DNA of 64,000 nucleotides from Escherichia phage Ec_Makalu_002: the sequence record MN709127.1; one strand, 5' to 3'. This document shows positions 16,667 through 23,473 of this stretch, piece after piece (the first letter of the stretch is position 1; each line of letters begins with the position of its first letter). Below the pieces are notes generated by a model. It ran no database searches, was not told where the DNA came from, and was given only the letters and a program-made list of their open reading frames with translations. Made by a program: the position numbers and the translations under genes.

Positions 16667-16695
16667 ATTATGATATACACCCTCTGTTATGTCAA
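16667..16695 (-). promoter_or_regulatory. sigma70-like early promoter (TTGACA-17-CATAAT)
   Basis: -35/-10 hexamers at 17-nt spacing on minus strand, upstream of conserved leader and RBS. Confidence 0.45.
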
Positions 16696-16701
16696 CAACT
16701 T

Positions 16702-16881
16702 TTAGAACATTTTTGAAATTAATTCTGCTTTGATTTCGCAGAGAACATCTAAAGATTTCTCGTCACCCGCTTTTGCTGCTTCTGCTTGCATTTTTGAAAT
16801 GGCTTCAATGTCAGTGCAATTATAAGCCGCTTGAACTTTAGCGATTGCGATGATTGCCGATTCGATGGTTAAGTGTTTCAT
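16702..16881 (-). CDS. hypothetical small protein (59 aa)
   Basis: Hand-translated (MKHLTIESAIIAIAKVQAAYNCTDIEA...); RBS AGGAGA; own promoter. Confidence 0.45.
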   Translation of the reverse strand: MKHLTIESAIIAIAKVQAAYNCTDIEAISKMQAEAAKAGDEKSLDVLCEIKAELISKMF

Positions 16882-16913
16882 GTTTGATTCTCCTTTCGTT
16901 TCGGTATGTGTGC

Positions 16914-16942
16914 AGTATAGGGGATCGCCGATCCCCTGTCAA
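16914..16942 (-). promoter_or_regulatory. sigma70-like early promoter with palindromic spacer (TTGACA-GGGGATCGGCGATCCCC-TATACT)
   Basis: Consensus -35, 17-nt GC-rich palindromic spacer with two GATC, -10 TATACT. Confidence 0.5.
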
Positions 16943-16949
16943 CAACTTT

Positions 16950-17504
16950 TTAGTTATTTTTTAATTGCTCATCTTGCAATAATGCAATCACATGCTGGCG
17001 ATGTTCTTCCGATTGAGGAACACCGAAAAAGTTTGTTTTGTAGAAATACTCTAATCGGTCTTCTCGTGTGCTCTCTTCCATCATGATCGCGGGTAGTCCA
17101 AGATTTCGGAAACGTCGCTTTTCTGCTGGCGTAAAATCACTGTAATACAACATAGAATCATCATTACCAGCAATGCTAAACTCATCCTTCATAAAGGAGA
17201 ATATTGCGTTTAAACGCTGTTTACCGTCCACGATTTCGATCTCATAGCGAGAGCCATCATCAATCTTAGCCATTGCGATAGCACCAACCGGAAAATCATT
17301 AATCAGGTTTTCGATAAACATACGTTTGTTTTCGGTGTCCCATACCAAAGGACGCTGATAATCTGGGTTCATGTTGATATAGCCATCTTCTAACCACGCC
17401 TCATAAACAGAGATGACAAAGTTTTTAGTATTGGTATAGTAACGGCGTTTAGGCGTTAAACGGTTCATGTTATAGTCTCCTGAATGGATCATCACGTAAA
17501 TCAA
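16950..17504 (-). CDS. DUF262 / ParB-like nuclease-domain protein (GmrS N-terminal-like), short form
   Basis: PDYQRPLVWD and DGKQRLNAI motifs; track start is TTG, ATG at about 17468 with AGGAG RBS more likely (172 aa). Confidence 0.65.
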   Translation of the reverse strand: MIYVMIHSGDYNMNRLTPKRRYYTNTKNFVISVYEAWLEDGYINMNPDYQRPLVWDTENKRMFIENLINDFPVGAIAMAKIDDGSRYEIEIVDGKQRLNAIFSFMKDEFSIAGNDDSMLYYSDFTPAEKRRFRNLGLPAIMMEESTREDRLEYFYKTNFFGVPQSEEHRQHVIALLQDEQLKNN

Positions 17505-17802
17505 TATCTTTTAAGAACTCATCCCATGAATGGCGGATAATGTTCTTAATTCTCCAGATAAGCGCAGGGATTGAACGCTCTCCCATCTGGAAGTAAGGAT
17601 CATATGATCCATATGCCCAATATGCTACTACAATTCCACAATCGGCGCAATAATATTCTATTTCACTTGCTGGCGACCAAAGTCCATCAATATGATCACG
17701 GATCTTGCTTTCGATGTTATGGCTATGGCAATCAGGGCAACGGATGCAATGACCTTGTTTATCGTAATTTGACGTTAGCGAATACTTAAACAATCTCATC
17801 AT
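17470..17802 (-). CDS. zinc-ribbon protein (two CxxC pairs)
   Basis: CIRCPDC ... CADCG; ATGA-coupled to upstream gene. Confidence 0.5.
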   Translation of the reverse strand: MMRLFKYSLTSNYDKQGHCIRCPDCHSHNIESKIRDHIDGLWSPASEIEYYCADCGIVVAYWAYGSYDPYFQMGERSIPALIWRIKNIIRHSWDEFLKDIDLRDDPFRRL

Positions 17803-18515
17803 AGATCCTTATTGGCTTCAAATACTGCCTTTGCGAATCCTCGCGGGGTAAGTGACCTGATAGTCTTTGTTCTGGTTCCTTTCCCGCCTAGCTTAGAATG
17901 CTGTTTACTGTACCCTTTATTAATCTGCAACGGTTTCTTTTCTGGCATTATAAAGCCTTGTCCGGTCCATAAGCAAGTCTTTTTCGGGTACATATCACGG
18001 GCGGCAATATACTCAGGAAACGTAGGATGCTTATCATCTTCCGGCAAATAACCGCCATATTCCCACGGATGGAACATGTAATCAGGCTTACGCCACATGC
18101 TAGAGATAACGCTTACAGGATTCTCTATCATGTAGGGAACTCCTAGCCATTCACCCAAATAAGCGGTTATTTTAGCTGCCCTTACATCATGAACTTGAAT
18201 TAATGGTCCTTGTTCTCGTTTCTTTCGTTCAAAGTGCGCAGCGCCACTAACAGCTAAATTGGTGCATGGTGGGAATGCAAAGATAATATCCGGTTTCCCC
18301 CATTCAAGGTCCATTGCTCTTTCCAGCCAATTTAAATCAATCCATGTGTTTACATATGTAATGTTTGGATGTTCAAATCGGGTATTATATTTTTTGTATG
18401 TACCGTGGTCGCCATCGTCAGCATTAAAGCAGATCACCTTATGACCTGCTTTAGCCCATTCTAACCCCATTATCCCCGATCCGTCAAAGTTGCAGAATAT
18501 TAATTTTTGTTTCAT
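17799..18515 (-). CDS. C5-cytosine-methyltransferase-like protein (SAM-dependent MTase fold, no obvious target-recognition domain)
   Basis: Motif I-like FDGSGIMG, motif IV-like FPPC with catalytic Cys, motif VI-like IENP; 238 aa. Confidence 0.5.
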   Translation of the reverse strand: MKQKLIFCNFDGSGIMGLEWAKAGHKVICFNADDGDHGTYKKYNTRFEHPNITYVNTWIDLNWLERAMDLEWGKPDIIFAFPPCTNLAVSGAAHFERKKREQGPLIQVHDVRAAKITAYLGEWLGVPYMIENPVSVISSMWRKPDYMFHPWEYGGYLPEDDKHPTFPEYIAARDMYPKKTCLWTGQGFIMPEKKPLQINKGYSKQHSKLGGKGTRTKTIRSLTPRGFAKAVFEANKDL

Positions 18516-18757
18516 ATACGCCCCTTTAACCCAACACAGATTTTAGAAGGTTCTTTGCCGTGCCACATTAAGTAAATTCCGTTAATGCGTCCTTGTTTTG
18601 TATATGATTCTTTTCTGATCTTCTTATAGTGTCGTGCTTCCTCAGCCGATTGTTTAGAATGTCGATCATAAAGGAAGAGGAACAAAGGCCAACCATTAGC
18701 GGCCTTAATGCAGTTATTCAAAAATTCCTTATTTCGTTTAATTAATTTTCTTTTCAC
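18512..18757 (-). CDS. hypothetical basic protein (81 aa)
   Basis: ORF track; apparent GTG start overlapping upstream stop. Confidence 0.4.
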   Translation of the reverse strand: MKRKLIKRNKEFLNNCIKAANGWPLFLFLYDRHSKQSAEEARHYKKIRKESYTKQGRINGIYLMWHGKEPSKICVGLKGRI

Positions 18758-19005
18758 GCTGCCCCCATTGGTTTGATAGTAACAGAATCTAAAAGACCTT
18801 TGTTAGCCAGTTCGCGGCAAGTTTTCAGATCCGCAACTTCCCAGCCAGCCGCAATAAGGTTATCAATGAGGCTGTTAGCAACTTCTTCGCTCATGAAAGA
18901 GCACTGTTTGCCGATGGTGTAGCGTACACGCTGTAATTTCAGTTTACGGAAGCCTTTAACGTTCAGGTCTTTAGCGATTTTCTTTGCGGTTTCGATGTTA
19001 GCCAT
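18754..19005 (-). CDS. hypothetical protein (83 aa), first gene of the 5-gene operon
   Basis: ATG with RBS and promoter just upstream. Confidence 0.5.
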   Translation of the reverse strand: MANIETAKKIAKDLNVKGFRKLKLQRVRYTIGKQCSFMSEEVANSLIDNLIAAGWEVADLKTCRELANKGLLDSVTIKPMGAA

Positions 19006-19045
19006 TGTTTGATTCTCCTAAGTGGTATCTCGTCTTGATGGTTGT

Positions 19046-19074
19046 ATTGTAGGGGAGTTATCCTCCCCTGTCAA
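19046..19074 (-). promoter_or_regulatory. sigma70-like early promoter for the 19005-16950 operon (TTGACA-GGGGAGGATAACTCCCC-TACAAT)
   Basis: -35/-10 at 17-nt spacing; palindromic spacer; conserved leader. Confidence 0.5.
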
Positions 19075-19088
19075 CACTTTTTATAAAA

Positions 19089-19256
19089 TTATTTGTTAAT
19101 TTCTGGTGCGTTGCTAGGATAGTAACCTTCTTTAACTCCGAGGTATTTCGCAACCATCCCTACAATCTTCTGTGCTACTACAATGTCAAATTTCAGATAA
19201 TCTTCGCCGTGGGTTTCAATGATATATGCTTCACATGCTGCTTTAGTCTCGAACAT
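19089..19256 (-). CDS. hypothetical small protein (55 aa), paralog A of the 22372-22539 gene
   Basis: Hand-translated MFETKAACEAYIIETHGEDYLKFDIVVAQKIVGMVAKYLGVKEGYYPSNAPEINK. Confidence 0.5.
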   Translation of the reverse strand: MFETKAACEAYIIETHGEDYLKFDIVVAQKIVGMVAKYLGVKEGYYPSNAPEINK

Positions 19257-19289
19257 TTTGATTCTCCTATTTCGTTTCGGTATGTGTGT

Positions 19290-19318
19290 ATTATAGGGGA
19301 TCTCCCGATCCCCGTCAA
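19290..19318 (-). promoter_or_regulatory. sigma70-like early promoter (TTGACG-17-TATAAT)
   Basis: Palindromic GC spacer GGGATCGGGAGATCCCC. Confidence 0.5.
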
Positions 19319-19332
19319 CAACTTTTTTAAAA

Positions 19333-19614
19333 TTATTCGTGATTAGTTTCGATATTGTGCATTTTGCACCAGTTCAGCCAATCGCCAAGATCTTGATAGT
19401 TGATGCTTTTATCTGCTGCCATCGTTTTTGTCTTGATACCCATATGTGCGTTATGAGTAAGCATTTTTACAGTGAACTCAATTTTATCGCCTTTAGCTTT
19501 AACATCAACCAGTTTGGTCCACTGGCTACCAGCACCGCGAATGTTCATACCAACGATGTTTCCGATGTATGCTTCTTTGTTGTTCAGGATTTCGGTTGCT
19601 TTGATGAATTTCAT
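19333..19614 (-). CDS. hypothetical protein (93 aa)
   Basis: ORF track; ATG, RBS, own promoter. Confidence 0.5.
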   Translation of the reverse strand: MKFIKATEILNNKEAYIGNIVGMNIRGAGSQWTKLVDVKAKGDKIEFTVKMLTHNAHMGIKTKTMAADKSINYQDLGDWLNWCKMHNIETNHE

Positions 19615-19647
19615 TTTTGATTCTCCAGTTCGTTTCGGTATGGGTGT

Positions 19648-19676
19648 ATTATGCTATGTTCTTACTTTGGTGTCAA
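19648..19676 (-). promoter_or_regulatory. sigma70-like early promoter (TTGACA-17-CATAAT)
   Basis: Hexamers at 17-nt spacing upstream of conserved leader. Confidence 0.4.
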
Positions 19677-19684
19677 CAACTTTT

Positions 19685-19954
19685 TTAGATATTTTCAGAA
19701 ATAAATTTTAAAACTTGACGTAAATGTTTCTCATCTTTGATAGTCGCCGGAAGTTCTTCTTTTACTTCCTGTGCAAGATAGATATTTCCGTTCCAAGTGA
19801 AAGACCCGTCTTCGTTTACGCGATAGCTGAACATCCATTCGCAATCATTTTCGATTTCATATACACACAGAAGGGTGTAATCTTCAAAGCTATTGATTTC
19901 AAGGTCGAAGCCGTGGCGTTTTGCAAAGTTGGTAGTGGTTTTAGTCAGTGCCAT
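19685..19954 (-). CDS. hypothetical protein (89 aa)
   Basis: ORF track; ATG and RBS. Confidence 0.5.
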   Translation of the reverse strand: MALTKTTTNFAKRHGFDLEINSFEDYTLLCVYEIENDCEWMFSYRVNEDGSFTWNGNIYLAQEVKEELPATIKDEKHLRQVLKFISENI

Positions 19955-19994
19955 TGTTTGATTCTCCTAAGTGGTATCTCGTTTCGATGGGTGT

Positions 19995-20023
19995 ATTATG
20001 CTATAGGCGTGATCAGGTGTCAA
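19995..20023 (-). promoter_or_regulatory. sigma70-like early promoter (TTGACA-17-CATAAT)
   Basis: Hexamers at 17-nt spacing. Confidence 0.4.
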
Positions 20024-20047
20024 TGCCTTTTTTAAAATTTTATGCAA

Positions 20048-20072
20048 TAAAAAAGCCGACACTAAGGTCGGC
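20048..20072 (-). terminator. rho-independent terminator
   Basis: GCCGACCTTAGTGTCGGC followed by TTTTTTATT on minus strand. Confidence 0.55.
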
Positions 20073-20080
20073 TAATAAAA

Positions 20081-20536
20081 TCATTTAGACAAATAATCAT
20101 TCAGTGCAATCCGGTCGGCATGTTCCGGCGTTACATCAATCGCAATCACTTTAACGCGTGCTTTCTTGCGACCTGGGTTTTCTCGTAACCAGTGCTCATG
20201 ACCGTGAACATTTTTATACTGCGATGCTTCTTCGAAGGTACGGATCGGACCAGGGTAATCAGCGTAAAGGATCTCTAGGTCATCGGTGATGTAAAAATAT
20301 ACGTTGTAATTACTGTTCTCTAGCTTAAGCAGAGACTTTCGGAACATTGGGAGATTTTCGCGGGTAAATTCAAAAGTAATATCTTTCATAGTATTATCCT
20401 CAATAGTTGGATGAAAAGGGGGCTTAACGCCCCATATATTAAAACAGTCCTTCCTGTACACCGTAGTAGAGTTCGTCGCTGATAATTTCATTAATGCGAC
20501 GGTGTGCATATTCCTGATTTGCGAAGTTGTCAGCAA
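20081..20536 (-). CDS. His-motif family small protein, member 1
   Basis: YFYITDDL ... HGHEHW ... VIAIDV; ATG at about 20389 with GAGGA RBS more likely (102 aa). Confidence 0.5.
   Translation of the reverse strand: MLTTSQIRNMHTVALMKLSATNSTTVYRKDCFNIWGVKPPFHPTIEDNTMKDITFEFTRENLPMFRKSLLKLENSNYNVYFYITDDLEILYADYPGPIRTFEEASQYKNVHGHEHWLRENPGRKKARVKVIAIDVTPEHADRIALNDYLSK
20414..20433 (-). terminator. terminator-like hairpin
   Basis: GGGGCGTTAAGCCCC followed by CTTTTC on minus strand. Confidence 0.4.
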
Positions 20537-20726
20537 GTTCTACTTTAGTTTCACCGTCATGAGTCCATTTAGTGATAACTTTACCATCTGCAAATTTGAA
20601 GTTGAACTCTTTAGCTACTGCATCGCGTACCAGACGTGCGAACTTGTTGTTACGGATTGCATTATCGGTTTCGTGTGCAGCGTGAGCAAATTTGTTAACT
20701 TTCAGAGTGATAGTGATGTATGCCAT
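20439..20726 (-). CDS. hypothetical protein (95 aa)
   Basis: ORF track; ATG, RBS, own promoter. Confidence 0.5.
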   Translation of the reverse strand: MAYITITLKVNKFAHAAHETDNAIRNNKFARLVRDAVAKEFNFKFADGKVITKWTHDGETKVELADNFANQEYAHRRINEIISDELYYGVQEGLF

Positions 20727-20772
20727 AATTTGATTCTCCTAGTTAGAAAGTGTATCTCGTTTCGATGGGTGT

Positions 20773-20801
20773 ATTATGCTATACACCCGATCTTATGTCA
20801 A
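20773..20801 (-). promoter_or_regulatory. sigma70-like early promoter (TTGACA-17-CATAAT)
   Basis: Hexamers at 17-nt spacing; palindrome GGGTGTAT..ATACACCC. Confidence 0.4.
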
Positions 20802-20809
20802 CACTTTTT

Positions 20810-21103
20810 TTATAAAATAATTTTTTGATATTTTTCTATGATGTTTGTGTAATCCACATCAACCGCTATCACCGTTGCTTCGAATCCACCGTTTAGCCAA
20901 TGGCTATGGTCATGATCGTGAAAGAAACCAAGACCAGTACGAAGACCTTCTTTATATTCGGCGCGTACATTTAGATCATCATCGATAAACAGATAAAACC
21001 ATGAATTTTTACTAGGATTGATGATACAACCTTTCAGATTAGGGAGAATATCACGACTAAGAATAAACTTATCACCTACTTTGAACATAATATTAGTCCT
21101 CAC
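20810..21103 (-). CDS. His-motif family small protein, member 2
   Basis: FYLFIDDDL ... HDHDHSHW ... VIAVDV; ATG at about 21088 more likely. Confidence 0.5.
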   Translation of the reverse strand: MRTNIMFKVGDKFILSRDILPNLKGCIINPSKNSWFYLFIDDDLNVRAEYKEGLRTGLGFFHDHDHSHWLNGGFEATVIAVDVDYTNIIEKYQKIIL

Positions 21104-21494
21104 TTATAAGGTCAAACCAATTGTTTTTCGCATAATGCTTAATGCGTGCTTGATCTGCTTCCGCTGGTGATAGATTCCATGCAACCACTACAACTTCTGA
21201 CGCGTCGTCATCCGTTTCTGATACCCAATGATTGTGATTCATACAGTTATTTGCGATCGAGTGAGCAAATGATTTCATCACTGGAGACGTATAATCATAG
21301 TAACGGATTTTCAGATTTTCATCAACATACAAGTAGATCGTATAAGGTTTATATTCAGTAACCAGTAACAGACAGTTACGCAATTCTGGGAAAATCTTTT
21401 TAGTTAATTTCATTTTATAATCCTCGGTCGCGGCTATAGTACACGGTACGCCATACAATTTCATGTTTCGTGTCGCTCCAGCACACGATCTCAT
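21093..21494 (-). CDS. His-motif family small protein, member 3
   Basis: IYLYVDENL ... NHNHW ... VVVVAW; ATG at about 21413 more likely (106 aa). Confidence 0.5.
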   Translation of the reverse strand: MRSCAGATRNMKLYGVPCTIAATEDYKMKLTKKIFPELRNCLLLVTEYKPYTIYLYVDENLKIRYYDYTSPVMKSFAHSIANNCMNHNHWVSETDDDASEVVVVAWNLSPAEADQARIKHYAKNNWFDLISED

Positions 21495-21654
21495 TTACTC
21501 TTAAATCTTTGTTATCAACAAAAGATGAACATTGTGACGCTTCTTTCATCATTTTATCTGCTGTTTTCTCATCAAATACAGCACAGATTTCTTTATACAC
21601 TCGATAATCTTTGAATTGACTCTGGATACCCATAATTAACACCATTCCAACCAA
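21415..21654 (-). CDS. hypothetical small protein, tandem paralog of 21593-21850
   Basis: Shared motif FKDY.VYKEI...F(D/A)EK.A(D/E)KMM(K/E)(E/D)AS.C.SF; likely start about 21633. Confidence 0.45.
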   Translation of the reverse strand: MVGMVLIMGIQSQFKDYRVYKEICAVFDEKTADKMMKEASQCSSFVDNKDLRVNEIVCWSDTKHEIVWRTVYYSRDRGL

Positions 21655-21850
21655 TTGTTTTTGAGAAAACGTTTATCCACTGTTGAGTGTAGCATGTTTC
21701 TTTCCATGATACAATACGAGTAGAATAATGGTTTTTGTTTCCAGAAAAGGACGGGCATTTTGATGCATCTTCCATCATCTTTTCGGCGAACTCCGCGTCA
21801 TATACCCGCAGGATCTGTTGATATGCTTTATAATCTTTAAATTTGCTCAT
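21593..21850 (-). CDS. hypothetical small protein, tandem paralog of 21415-21654
   Basis: ORF track; see paralog. Confidence 0.45.
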   Translation of the reverse strand: MSKFKDYKAYQQILRVYDAEFAEKMMEDASKCPSFSGNKNHYSTRIVSWKETCYTQQWINVFSKTIGWNGVNYGYPESIQRLSSV

Positions 21851-22115
21851 AATTGTTAACTACCTTATCAGCTTCTTTTATTGTTTTTACATCAACTGCG
21901 ATAATCCGTAAAGGTTCGTCGAAGGTCCACCAGTGGTCATGAATATCAGCTTGTGATTTATCACCAAAGGAATCACGAATATCATTTTTACATTTATAGC
22001 TAATATGGCCTTCATAGTCAACATAAAGGTAATTATCGAAAATCGGCGTTTTTAAGATCATACCGAAAAATCTTTCTTTGTGTGTCTTATCAAGTGTTGC
22101 AGTAATTCGCATCAT
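21837..22115 (-). CDS. His-motif family small protein, member 4
   Basis: YLYVDYEG ... HDHWW ... IIAVDV; ATG with GAGGA RBS. Confidence 0.55.
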   Translation of the reverse strand: MMRITATLDKTHKERFFGMILKTPIFDNYLYVDYEGHISYKCKNDIRDSFGDKSQADIHDHWWTFDEPLRIIAVDVKTIKEADKVVNNYEQI

Positions 22116-22127
22116 AATATATTCCTC

Positions 22128-22307
22128 TTAGAAAGGGATGGTCATTTCTTGAGCTTGTACATTCTCGTTAGGATTAAACTTCATCCAACCGATATTGTCT
22201 ACCAGCATATGTACATTTTTATCATATCCTACGTGAGTAGTCAACACTAAATGTGCTTTACCTTCAACGATGATTTCCATGTACTTCTGAACTTCGATAG
22301 CTTTCAT
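22128..22307 (-). CDS. hypothetical small protein (59 aa)
   Basis: Hand-translated (MKAIEVQKYMEIIVEGKAHLVL...); RBS GGAGAA; own promoter. Confidence 0.4.
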   Translation of the reverse strand: MKAIEVQKYMEIIVEGKAHLVLTTHVGYDKNVHMLVDNIGWMKFNPNENVQAQEMTIPF

Positions 22308-22339
22308 TTTGATTCTCCGTTTGTTGTCTTGATGGGAGT

Positions 22340-22368
22340 ATCTTACTACTCCCTTTAATCATTGTCAA
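22340..22368 (-). promoter_or_regulatory. sigma70-like early promoter (TTGACA-17-TAAGAT)
   Basis: Hexamers at 17-nt spacing; palindrome GGGAGTA..TACTCCC around -10. Confidence 0.4.
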
Positions 22369-22371
22369 CTA

Positions 22372-22695
22372 TTATTTGTTAATTTCCGGTGCGTTGCTCG
22401 GATAGTAACCTTCTTTAACACCCAGATATTTTGCAACCATTCCGGTGATCTTCTGTGCTACTACGATATCGAATTTCAGGTAGTCTTCACCGTGGTTTGC
22501 TACAATGTATGCTTCGCATTCTGCTTTAGTCTGGAACATTTTTGATTCTCCTATATCTCGTTGGTATGTGTGCATTATAGGGGATCGGTGATCCCCTGTC
22601 AACAACTTTTTATGATTTTTCTTTATATGCGTATTGAATAAATTGGTCCGCCACTTCGTCGGCTTTTTCGGGTTTGACTTCTGACGCCAGGACAA
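22372..22695 (-). CDS. hypothetical small protein, paralog B of the 19089-19256 gene
   Basis: Upstream part of track ORF is read-through of the leader (MHTY..GES); real gene probably 22372-22539 (55 aa, 49/55 identical to paralog A). Confidence 0.5.
   Translation of the reverse strand: MSWRQKSNPKKPTKWRTNLFNTHIKKNHKKLLTGDHRSPIMHTYQRDIGESKMFQTKAECEAYIVANHGEDYLKFDIVVAQKITGMVAKYLGVKEGYYPSNAPEINK
22574..22602 (-). promoter_or_regulatory. sigma70-like early promoter (TTGACA-GGGGATCACCGATCCCC-TATAAT)
   Basis: Consensus hexamers, 17-nt palindromic spacer. Confidence 0.5.
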
Positions 22696-22906
22696 TAGCT
22701 AGATCGGTTTCGTCGTTCCCGTCATACCAATGATTATGAGTGTCTTTTTCTTTGATATAGAATGAGTCATTTGGAGTTGGACGACAATATACGTCTAAAT
22801 TCTCGTCGATGTAAAAGATCCAATCTTCATAAAGAATAACCGTATTAGCAAGGTTCTTATTACCTTCAACGAAAGGTTCGGTTACAAACAAATCAGTACG
22901 TTCCAT
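22610..22906 (-). CDS. His-motif family small protein, member 5
   Basis: WIFYIDENL ... THNHW ... AIVLASEV. Confidence 0.55.
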   Translation of the reverse strand: MERTDLFVTEPFVEGNKNLANTVILYEDWIFYIDENLDVYCRPTPNDSFYIKEKDTHNHWYDGNDETDLAIVLASEVKPEKADEVADQFIQYAYKEKS

Positions 22907-23140: not shown

Positions 23141-23473
23141 TCACACAAAATGGCGTGTCAATGCTTCTTTTGCGGTTCCGCTAAGATTCTCGATCTCTCC
23201 TGGCATAACATCAACCGCCAGAACTTCTACAACATCCTCTGTTCCTAACCAGTGAGTATGACCTTTGTAGAACTTGATGCCCATATTGCCTTCTTCGTCC
23301 CATTTAACGCCCCATTTAACGTTATCACTAGCCCACCACACATCACCGTCGATAAAGTTGATGTAAAGCACACTACGCCACATTGAATTAGTTACTTTCA
23401 ATACCGCGCCTTTCATCTCTTCCACGGTGTGGTCTTCCATTTTGAAGACCTCGCCTACCTGAACTTTTGCCAT
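23141..23473 (-). CDS. His-motif family small protein, member 6
   Basis: LYINFIDGD ... GHTHW ... VLAVDV. Confidence 0.55.
   Translation of the reverse strand: MAKVQVGEVFKMEDHTVEEMKGAVLKVTNSMWRSVLYINFIDGDVWWASDNVKWGVKWDEEGNMGIKFYKGHTHWLGTEDVVEVLAVDVMPGEIENLSGTAKEALTRHFV

Follow-up and report, generated by a model that had tools for sequence, protein, structure and literature searches.

Probable old paralogous PeSL cassettes, still recombining, in the hyperplastic early region of a Krischvirus genome

Small ORFan genes of phages RB49 and phi1 are carried in cassettes together with a promoter-early stem-loop, or PeSL (Arbiol, Comeau, Kutateladze, Adamia & Krisch, 2010, Genome Biol Evol 2:140; PMC2839356). 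In that work the phi1/RB49 element PeSL206/205 gave approximately 13 000 Miller units in a lacZ fusion, and the stem-loop was described as a terminator or attenuator for upstream transcription. A sequenced RB49 mini-circle, 'band H', carries ORFs 191–194, with the PeSL between ORF190 and ORF191 as a crossover site, and the PeSL circles reported so far range from 0.4 to 1.4 kb (PMC2839356). The same authors drew a comparison with integron gene cassettes and lambdoid 'morons', where small accessory genes likewise travel as units that include the signals for their expression, and where recombination at conserved flanking sites likewise produces insertion, deletion and duplication. Unlike integrons, PeSL cassettes have neither an integrase nor an attC site; they appear to recombine through short stretches of homology, with the general machinery of T4-type phages, and their conserved linker is the promoter–terminator itself. 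The paralogy of ORF191 and ORF205 is never mentioned in this paper or in its 2014 follow-up (PMC4122927), and neither discusses duplication or gene conversion (in the two texts, 'paralog' has no match and 'duplicat' a single unrelated one).

Here we examine this gene pair in Escherichia phage Ec_Makalu_002 (MN709127.1), of which a stretch of 64 000 nt, referred to below as the window, was analysed. The window belongs to Krischvirus, the RB49-like T4-type coliphages; it is 98.5% identical at the nucleotide level to Ec_Makalu_003 and was matched by 58 Krischvirus records. Like ORFs 185–212 (HPR3) of RB49, the locus sits in the alt–DNA ligase interval, within a hyperplastic early-gene region; a regular-expression search over the window as a whole gave some 11 promoters bearing an obvious G/C stem-loop. 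From the ORF list and annotations, the 55-aa ORF at 19089..19256 on the minus strand, copy A, is the orthologue of RB49 ORF191 (RB49p191/phi1p191), and that at 22372..22539, also on the minus strand, copy B, is the orthologue of RB49 ORF205 (RB49p205/phi1p205). Genus, HPR3 neighbourhood, genes and PeSL anatomy are thus those of Arbiol et al. (2010): the promoter of copy B is the orthologue of their cloned PeSL206/205, copy A is among the band H ORFs, and indel junctions between related genomes fall inside PeSLs, as they reported. The system is already known, the finding is largely ordinary, and no new kind of element is involved. What goes beyond the earlier description is a 3.28-kb deletion and patches of conversion, both seen in genomes sequenced later. 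We consider it very probable that A and B represent paralogous 'PeSL + ORFan' cassettes of old origin, which still recombine in the Krischvirus hyperplastic early region, a matter of small relevance outside phage genome evolution.

An earlier note, made from the letters of the window, had described two 55-aa ORFs with 49 identical residues about 3 kb apart, and this was confirmed by BLASTP (49/55, 89%, E = 1e-37) and by a start-to-start distance of 3283 nt. The pairwise nucleotide alignment it proposed yields an ungapped direct repeat of 172 nt, 19088–19259 against 22371–22542 (repeat family D3), that is 85% identical; within the coding sequences 26 of 168 nt differ, and the C-terminal 23 residues of the two proteins are the same. 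As judged from the alignments, this level of identity is far above chance. No third copy was found by tblastn of the whole window with either protein. The alignment breaks down at once past the stop codon (TAAT), and the genes flanking A have no BLASTP match to those flanking B; a larger duplicated segment around the copies was considered and ruled out on these two grounds. The 3283-nt repeat unit (19257..22539, minus strand) holds one 55-aa gene with its PeSL, together with 12 small ORFs homologous to ORF193–194 and 197–204; four of these belong to an HxHW family with six copies.

Four PeSLs bound the two genes, all on the minus strand. That driving copy A (19257..19337; repeat family D1, promoter scan, RNA fold) runs from an AT-rich tract through a −35 (TTGACG, 19318–19313), a stem-loop in the spacer (GGGGATC-GGGA-GATCCCC), a −10 (TATAAT, 19295–19290; scan 11/12) and a leader to the Shine–Dalgarno sequence (SD) GGAG and the ATG. 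The one driving copy B, the PeSL206/205 orthologue (22540..22621; also identified by promoter scan, fold and family D1), has TTGACA (22602–22597) and TATAAT (22579–22574), a perfect scan of 12/12, with GGGGATC-ACC-GATCCCC in the spacer followed by leader, SD and ATG. Directly downstream of copy A, and bounding its cassette on the 3′ side, is the promoter of the ORF190 homologue (19006..19088; scan and fold), which reads TTGACA-17-TACAAT (11/12) with stem-loop GGGGAG-GATAA-CTCCCC (fold z = −3.7). Directly downstream of copy B, the promoter of the ORF204 homologue (22308..22371; scan and fold) reads TTGACA-17-TAAGAT (10/12; z = −4.3) and has a stem-loop of the class GGGAGTAGTAAGATACTCCC, whose stem GGGAGTAG..ACTCCC overlaps the −10. 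All four fold as predicted, with z-scores for the flanked segments from −1.8 to −4.3, the weakest being that of copy A. The layout as read is ...TAA(T)-AAAAAGTTGTTGAC...ATAGGAGAATCAAAATG, in which the AT-rich tract upstream of the −35 holds the stop of the preceding gene, and the SD and the start of the small ORFan stand at the 3′ end; PeSLs make up repeat families D1 and D2 of the window. The near-consensus sigma-70 promoter (TTGACA-N17-TATAAT), the stable G(n)-loop-C(n) stem-loop placed in the spacer or across a box, the layout, the hyperplastic location with many repeats of the element, and indel junctions within PeSLs were all found here as Arbiol et al. (2010) defined them. Read in this way, each copy is a putative early transcription unit of its own, followed directly by the PeSL of the next gene.

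The similarity of A and B does extend upstream, as the earlier note had it, through SD, leader, −10 and −35 (81% gapped identity over 85 nt), but it is not specific to the pair. At least three unrelated genes of the window share it, namely g16881, the ORF209 homologue (81–89%) and g58119 (72–78%): the PeSL of copy A is closer to that of ORF209 (89%) than to that of copy B (81%), and the PeSL of copy B matches those of g16881 and ORF209 at 83%. Across genomes, sub-parts of the PeSLs are also mixed between the two loci. On these comparisons, the likeness of promoter and leader is a genome-wide PeSL consensus and not a mark of co-duplication.

This bears directly on the age of the pair. The earlier note took gene, promoter and leader to have been duplicated together in a recent segmental event, and identities of 89% (protein) and 85% (DNA) that continue through SD, leader and promoter would be expected of such an event. 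Yet the upstream similarity is no higher than that to the PeSLs of unrelated genes, the homology extends no further than the stop codon, and the genes around A are not related to those around B. The synonymous divergence also speaks against a recent event: dS between A and B is 1.05 (pS = 0.56), whereas within each orthologue group of the 17 genomes it is only 0.06–0.08. Nucleotide differences between types number 17–29, against a within-type mean of 2.7, and 12 of the differences are fixed. Of the 17 genomes read closely, 12 have both types, already distinct, among them RB49, Phi1, JSE and GEC-3S, and tblastn found two places in all but seven of the Krischvirus records among the matches listed. 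Copy A stands in its usual context in 51 of the 58 records, is missing from five and is part of a fused junction in two. Since synonymous divergence is near saturation and both copies occur genus-wide, the duplication is, as far as sequence comparison can date it, neither recent nor segmental, and the proposal of a recent event is scarcely credible; A and B would instead be an ancient, conserved pair of a single 168-nt gene. With dN at 0.055 (dN/dS = 0.05), both copies are apparently under strong purifying selection, and the fixed amino-acid differences between them are E3Q, A7E, E14A and V32T. The copy A protein is identical in Phi1, JSE, G2248 and FL04 and differs by one residue in RB49.

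We suggest that, well before the lineages of the sampled Krischvirus genomes split, a second PeSL site received a copy of one cassette, perhaps by way of an excised PeSL mini-circle or by unequal exchange between PeSLs, and that purifying selection would then have kept both copies with their fixed set of amino-acid differences. Homologous cassettes could also have come from different donor phages and been inserted independently at two PeSL sites, making A and B xenologues. Saturated synonymous sites mean that shared ancestry within one genome can no longer be read from the DNA, entry from co-infecting phages is expressly provided for by the mini-circle model (PMC2839356), and the 55-aa family does occur in unrelated phages (Swiduovirus-like siphophages, 70–72%; a contig, next to NinG; Sasha-like phages, 40%). 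Against this, no known protein is closer to either copy than the two are to one another (89%), the next best, P0003, reaching 83% to A and 78% to B (the latter by our own count); the identical C-terminal 23 residues are common to both; and an exhaustive HMMER search of 1.84 billion representatives revealed no closer donor, yielding about four true clusters alongside spurious matches in long repetitive proteins (a word-indexed search for remote homologues likewise gave four clusters). Separate acquisition thus seems improbable to us, and we retain the copying of one cassette within the lineage.

The protein itself belongs end to end to phrog_8009, which both copies match over residues 1–55 of 55 (PHROGs v4; E = 6.8e-38 and 1.2e-38) and which PHROGs annotates as 'unknown function'. 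Searches of Pfam and PADLOC and a sequence profile search of the PDB gave no match, scanning 185 579 genomes of bacteria and archaea revealed no homologue, and our literature search found no paper naming RB49p191/205 or phi1p191/205. An AlphaFold2 model of low confidence (pLDDT 67) has the form of a two-helix hairpin, with nothing below E = 1.8 in a Foldseek search of BFVD; we describe the protein as a predicted hairpin of two helices plus a tail that is conserved and disordered, and its most likely role would be that of a dispensable early host-interaction factor. The neighbouring six-copy family gives a confident model (pLDDT 84.7) that has no match in the PDB at E ≤ 0.001; weak matches to 2H or phage phosphodiesterases (E > 1, TM approximately 0.2) were disregarded.

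Within the coding sequences, the two types have not stayed entirely apart. Deviations from the consensus of a copy's own type equal the base of the other paralogue in 27 of 45 cases, and the copy in phage Brandy contains six consecutive A-type sites, a run that arose in none of 200 000 permutations. Short stretches of this kind, matching the other copy, point to gene conversion between A and B. Parallel synonymous mutation could account for some of the isolated 'other-type' sites, as could polymorphisms inherited across several genomes and hence counted more than once. The model we favour has direct repeats within the PeSLs still recombining, so that occasional short conversion patches would pass between the copies. 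That tracts are exchanged while the fixed amino-acid differences stay suggests that two variants of the 55-aa protein are being maintained. One might go further and propose, though we do so tentatively and regard it as doubtful, that the paralogues have diverged in function and are kept distinct by selection at four to six residues of the helical hairpin, and that they and their PeSLs bracket a 3.3-kb 'super-cassette' gained and lost via a circle. The residues in question would be positions 3, 7, 13–15 and 32, with gene conversion homogenizing the rest of the gene; the 12-ORFan block would be gained and lost as a unit in phage populations through a circular intermediate.

The earlier note also saw in the repeat a substrate for deletion or inversion by homologous recombination. 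Inversion does not apply, since A and B are direct repeats on the same (minus) strand, while deletion is supported by two natural variants. Phages Cognac and FL04 lack exactly the A–B interval as a block (blastn against the window, alignments and a junction search in 58 genomes), and each retains one gene, with the upstream neighbour of copy B and the downstream neighbour of copy A. The type switch lies between the leader and codon 3 in Cognac and, at a different point, within the −35/stem-loop in FL04, so that by sequence type both crossovers map to the PeSL and not to the coding repeat. In the flanks, the nearest relatives of each are two-copy genomes (99.2–99.6%), whereas between Cognac and FL04 themselves similarity is only 91% on one flank and 96% on the other. 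Because Krischvirus genomes are mosaic, independence was judged by this local flank similarity and not by a genome tree; on that basis the 3.28-kb interval was removed at least twice, in apparently independent events, by what we read as PeSL-to-PeSL crossover.

Might the coding repeat, and not the PeSLs, nonetheless drive these deletions? The same pair of PeSLs, out of many possible, was used both times, PeSL and coding sequence together offer approximately 250 nt of about 85% homology, above any other PeSL pair, and at sites 114 and 120 the Cognac coding sequence is of the B type. Both type switches are upstream of codon 3, however, the longest perfect blocks of the coding sequence are short (20, 17 and 15 nt), and other deletions of the region, in Brandy, MIZ4 and phiS, used PeSL pairs that have no coding homology. 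We thus regard a driving role of the coding repeat as rather unlikely and favour crossovers between PeSLs, which would remove the whole interval or the copy-A cassette alone or with neighbours. The locus neatly illustrates the PeSL model at work in nature, on a larger scale than the reported circles, with same-gene cassettes bracketing a 3.3-kb block deleted at least twice in nature, and would offer a convenient assay system for PeSL-mediated recombination. Indel junctions lie inside PeSLs in Cognac, FL04, Brandy, MIZ4 and phiS; Brandy has lost the copy-A cassette alone, and MIZ4 has lost it together with its neighbours.

The two 55-codon genes at 19089-19256 (copy A) and 22372-22539 (copy B), both recovered in the ORF list on the minus strand, are a real feature of an already known system. 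A megablast search with 18700-22900 matched 58 phage records, every one from Krischvirus (the RB49-like T4-type coliphages), with Ec_Makalu_003 the top match (98.5%). In the RB49 and Phi1 annotation, copy A is ORF191 and copy B is ORF205, both placed between alt and DNA ligase in the neighbourhood of the RB49 hyperplastic region HPR3; ORF192 is missing from the window, as it is from phi1. Short minus-strand ORFs follow one another at this locus, and ahead of each stands a near-identical non-coding cassette of ~80 nt. These cassettes, the promoter-early stem-loops (PeSLs), were described for RB49 and phi1 at ~50 per genome (Arbiol et al., 2010; PMC2839356). In each, an AT-rich tract that contains the stop codon of the preceding gene is combined with a sigma-70 promoter close to perfect, a stem-loop of G(n)-loop-C(n) form, a Shine-Dalgarno sequence (SD) and the first codon of a small ORFan. 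The PeSL-ORFan system here is the same one, and the genome stretch is the one studied experimentally (PMC2839356).

The two proteins share 49 of 55 residues (BLASTP, E=1e-37), and pairwise DNA alignment gives an ungapped 172-nt repeat of 85% identity at a spacing of 3,283 nt; tblastn over the 64-kb window found only these two. Homology stops at the stop codon and the genes flanking copy A are unrelated to those flanking copy B, so what was duplicated is one gene cassette rather than the segment proposed in the earlier note. Nor does that note's recent origin hold. The coding sequences differ at 26 of 168 nt (19 in third codon positions), with dS=1.05, dN=0.055 and dN/dS=0.05 (Nei-Gojobori). 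In the 17 genomes read, by contrast, which gave 13 A-type and 16 B-type copies, same-type copies differ by a mean of 2.7 nt (dS 0.06–0.08), whereas A-type and B-type copies differ by 17–29 nt, 12 of them fixed. These distances place the duplication before the sampled Krischvirus radiation, its synonymous distance being more than ten times larger, and show both copies to be under purifying selection. The A/B difference is fixed at residues 3, 7, 14 and 32 in all 17 genomes read, and residues 13 and 15 are swapped between types in a few; outgroup homologues suggest that the derived states are those of A at 7 and 13 and those of B at 3, 14, 15 and 32. Neither copy has a closer known relative than the other; the next-best protein (P0003) is 83% identical to A. 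This favours, short of proof, duplication inside the genome over two imports.

Upstream of both copies the PeSL anatomy is matched exactly. The promoter scan gave TTGACG-17-TATAAT (11/12) for copy A and TTGACA-17-TATAAT (12/12) for copy B, and RNA folding places GGGGATC...GATCCCC hairpins in both promoter spacers; another PeSL directly follows each copy (19006-19088 after A, 22308-22371 after B). The earlier note took promoter and leader to be duplicated along with the gene. The upstream similarity is confirmed, the co-copying is not: over the 85 nt before the ATG (gapped identity matrix), PeSL A is 81% identical to PeSL B but 89% identical to the PeSL of the ORF209 homologue, and PeSL B is 83% identical to two other PeSLs. 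The likeness is thus that of the PeSL family consensus, which does not demonstrate joint copying of promoter and gene. Loop and leader variants are also shuffled between the A and B loci across the 17 genomes (Skers A has a B-type leader, JSE A a B-type loop and G2248 B an A-type loop). Fused to lacZ, the cassette of copy B, PeSL206/205, yielded ~13,000 Miller units (PMC2839356). At the 17 codons differing only synonymously, the E. coli-preferred codon lies in copy B at 11 and in copy A at three, and copy B also carries the perfect promoter; codons and promoter together hint, weakly, that copy B may be the more highly expressed (sign test ~0.06).

PeSLs of the GGGGATC...GATCCCC class have minus-strand -35 starts at 16942, 19318, 22602, 23734 (a GGGGGTC variant) and 58179. 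A second class has its stem-loop, GGGAGT(A/T)GTAA(G/A)ATACTCCC, overlapping the -10 box and is found repeatedly in the window (-35 starts at 22368, 31591, 32097, 57956 and 59481, minus strand). A 79-nt direct repeat of 77% identity (18970-19048 and 19919-19997) spans the PeSL leader, SD and first ~12 codons of the otherwise unrelated ORF190 and ORF194 homologues (MANIET.. and MALTKT..), so PeSL homology can reach into N-terminal coding sequence. The only clear rho-independent terminator within the A-B interval, AGCCGACCTTAGTGTCGGCT plus a T-run at 20054-20073 (minus strand), follows the ORF197 homologue, and a terminator is annotated at the equivalent place in the Ec_Makalu_003 and GEC-3S records.

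Sharing the minus strand, the two copies form direct repeats, open to deletion or amplification and not to the inversion that the earlier note also allowed; its proposal of a deletion substrate is borne out by natural isolates. Cognac and FL04 lack window ~19326-22609, the interval between the copies, and each retains a single 55-aa gene with the ORF206 homologue (B's neighbour) upstream and the ORF190 homologue (A's neighbour) downstream. This contiguous junction occurs in only these two of the 58 records; copy A is in its usual context in 51 and missing in five. Mapped site by site against close two-copy relatives, the B-to-A switch in Cognac falls after the leader and before codon 3, within the shared ATAGGAGAATCAAAATGTTC block, and that in FL04 inside the -35/stem-loop. 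The flanks of each are 99.2–99.6% identical to two-copy genomes, whereas between Cognac and FL04 the two flanks match at only 91% and 96%, and the deletions look like two independent, derived events. The deletion in Brandy takes out exactly the copy-A cassette, from one of its two PeSLs to the other, that in MIZ4 removes window 16672-19256, again from PeSL to PeSL, and phiS lacks ORFs 206–210 upstream of copy B, which looks like a further PeSL-mediated deletion beside the pair. In phiS (L014 4656-4744) copy B directly follows an HNH endonuclease gene, and its leader is unlike those of the remaining B copies, which suggests a hybrid PeSL. The crossover zones coincide with those published for mini-circles, namely -10 to SD/ATG or the stem-loop; the sequenced mini-circle held ORFs 191–194, and hence copy A (PMC2839356).

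Gene conversion has left traces as well. The copy that Brandy retains, at the B locus, has A-type bases at six informative sites in a row (51–75); a run as long was reached in 0 of 200,000 permutations, and this conversion tract is unambiguous. B-type bases occur at sites 114–120 in the Cognac, phiS, ECD7-like and JSE A copies. Where a copy departs from the consensus of its own type, it has the other paralogue's base in 27 of 45 cases, a count that overstates the number of events since some cells are inherited in common. The ORF191-ORF205 paralogy, the interval deletion in isolates and the conversion tracts go unmentioned in PMC2839356 and the follow-up PMC4122927; they add modestly to a known mechanism and amount to no new kind of element.

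Both copies match phrog_8009 (annotated unknown function), and Pfam, PADLOC and PDB searches returned no relative. The AlphaFold2 model (pLDDT 67) has helices at 5–16 and 18–39 and a disordered conserved tail, and found no match in BFVD. The family is tiny: HMMER over 1.84 billion representatives yielded only about four true clusters, a scan of 185,579 bacterial and archaeal genomes found no member, and those known come solely from phages or phage-like contigs, namely Krischvirus, Swiduovirus-like siphophages (41–48 kb; ~70–72% identical, one copy and no PeSL), a contig where the gene adjoins NinG, and Sasha-like phages (40%). Single-copy homologues in unrelated phages indicate horizontal spread of the gene. 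In the Swiduovirus siphophage swi2 (Escherichia phage; L018 2501-2656) a 72% homologue lies beside the large terminase gene with no PeSL upstream, and in a lambdoid-like contig (L020 680-871) the homologue is immediately 3' of NinG. Natural phages with only A or only B exist, so the protein is dispensable, at least in part; our guess is a non-essential early host-interaction factor.

Six paralogous ORFans of 92–110 aa, 22–31% identical pairwise, share the neighbourhood (20081-20389, 20810-21088, 21093-21413, 21837-22115, 22610-22906 and 23141-23473, minus strand; homologues of RB49 ORF197, 199, 200, 203, 206 and 208), four of them between the copies. All members share an invariant H-x-H-W motif, and most have kept a hydrophobic strand downstream (consensus VIAVDV). 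Their PHROGs are all 'unknown', Pfam gave no match, and a confident AlphaFold2 model (pLDDT 84.7; beta-sheet plus C-terminal helix) matched no PDB fold at E<=0.001. The ORF201 and ORF202 homologues (21415-21633 and 21593-21850, minus strand) are tandem, slightly overlapping paralogues, 43% identical, in phrog_8471 (annotated unknown function). Gene 17799-18515 is annotated in related records as a C-5 cytosine or DNA methyltransferase, with no Pfam match here; just downstream lies the 172-aa ORF187 homologue (16950-17468, minus strand), in which Pfam recognises a GmrSD_N / DUF262 domain (E=4e-20).
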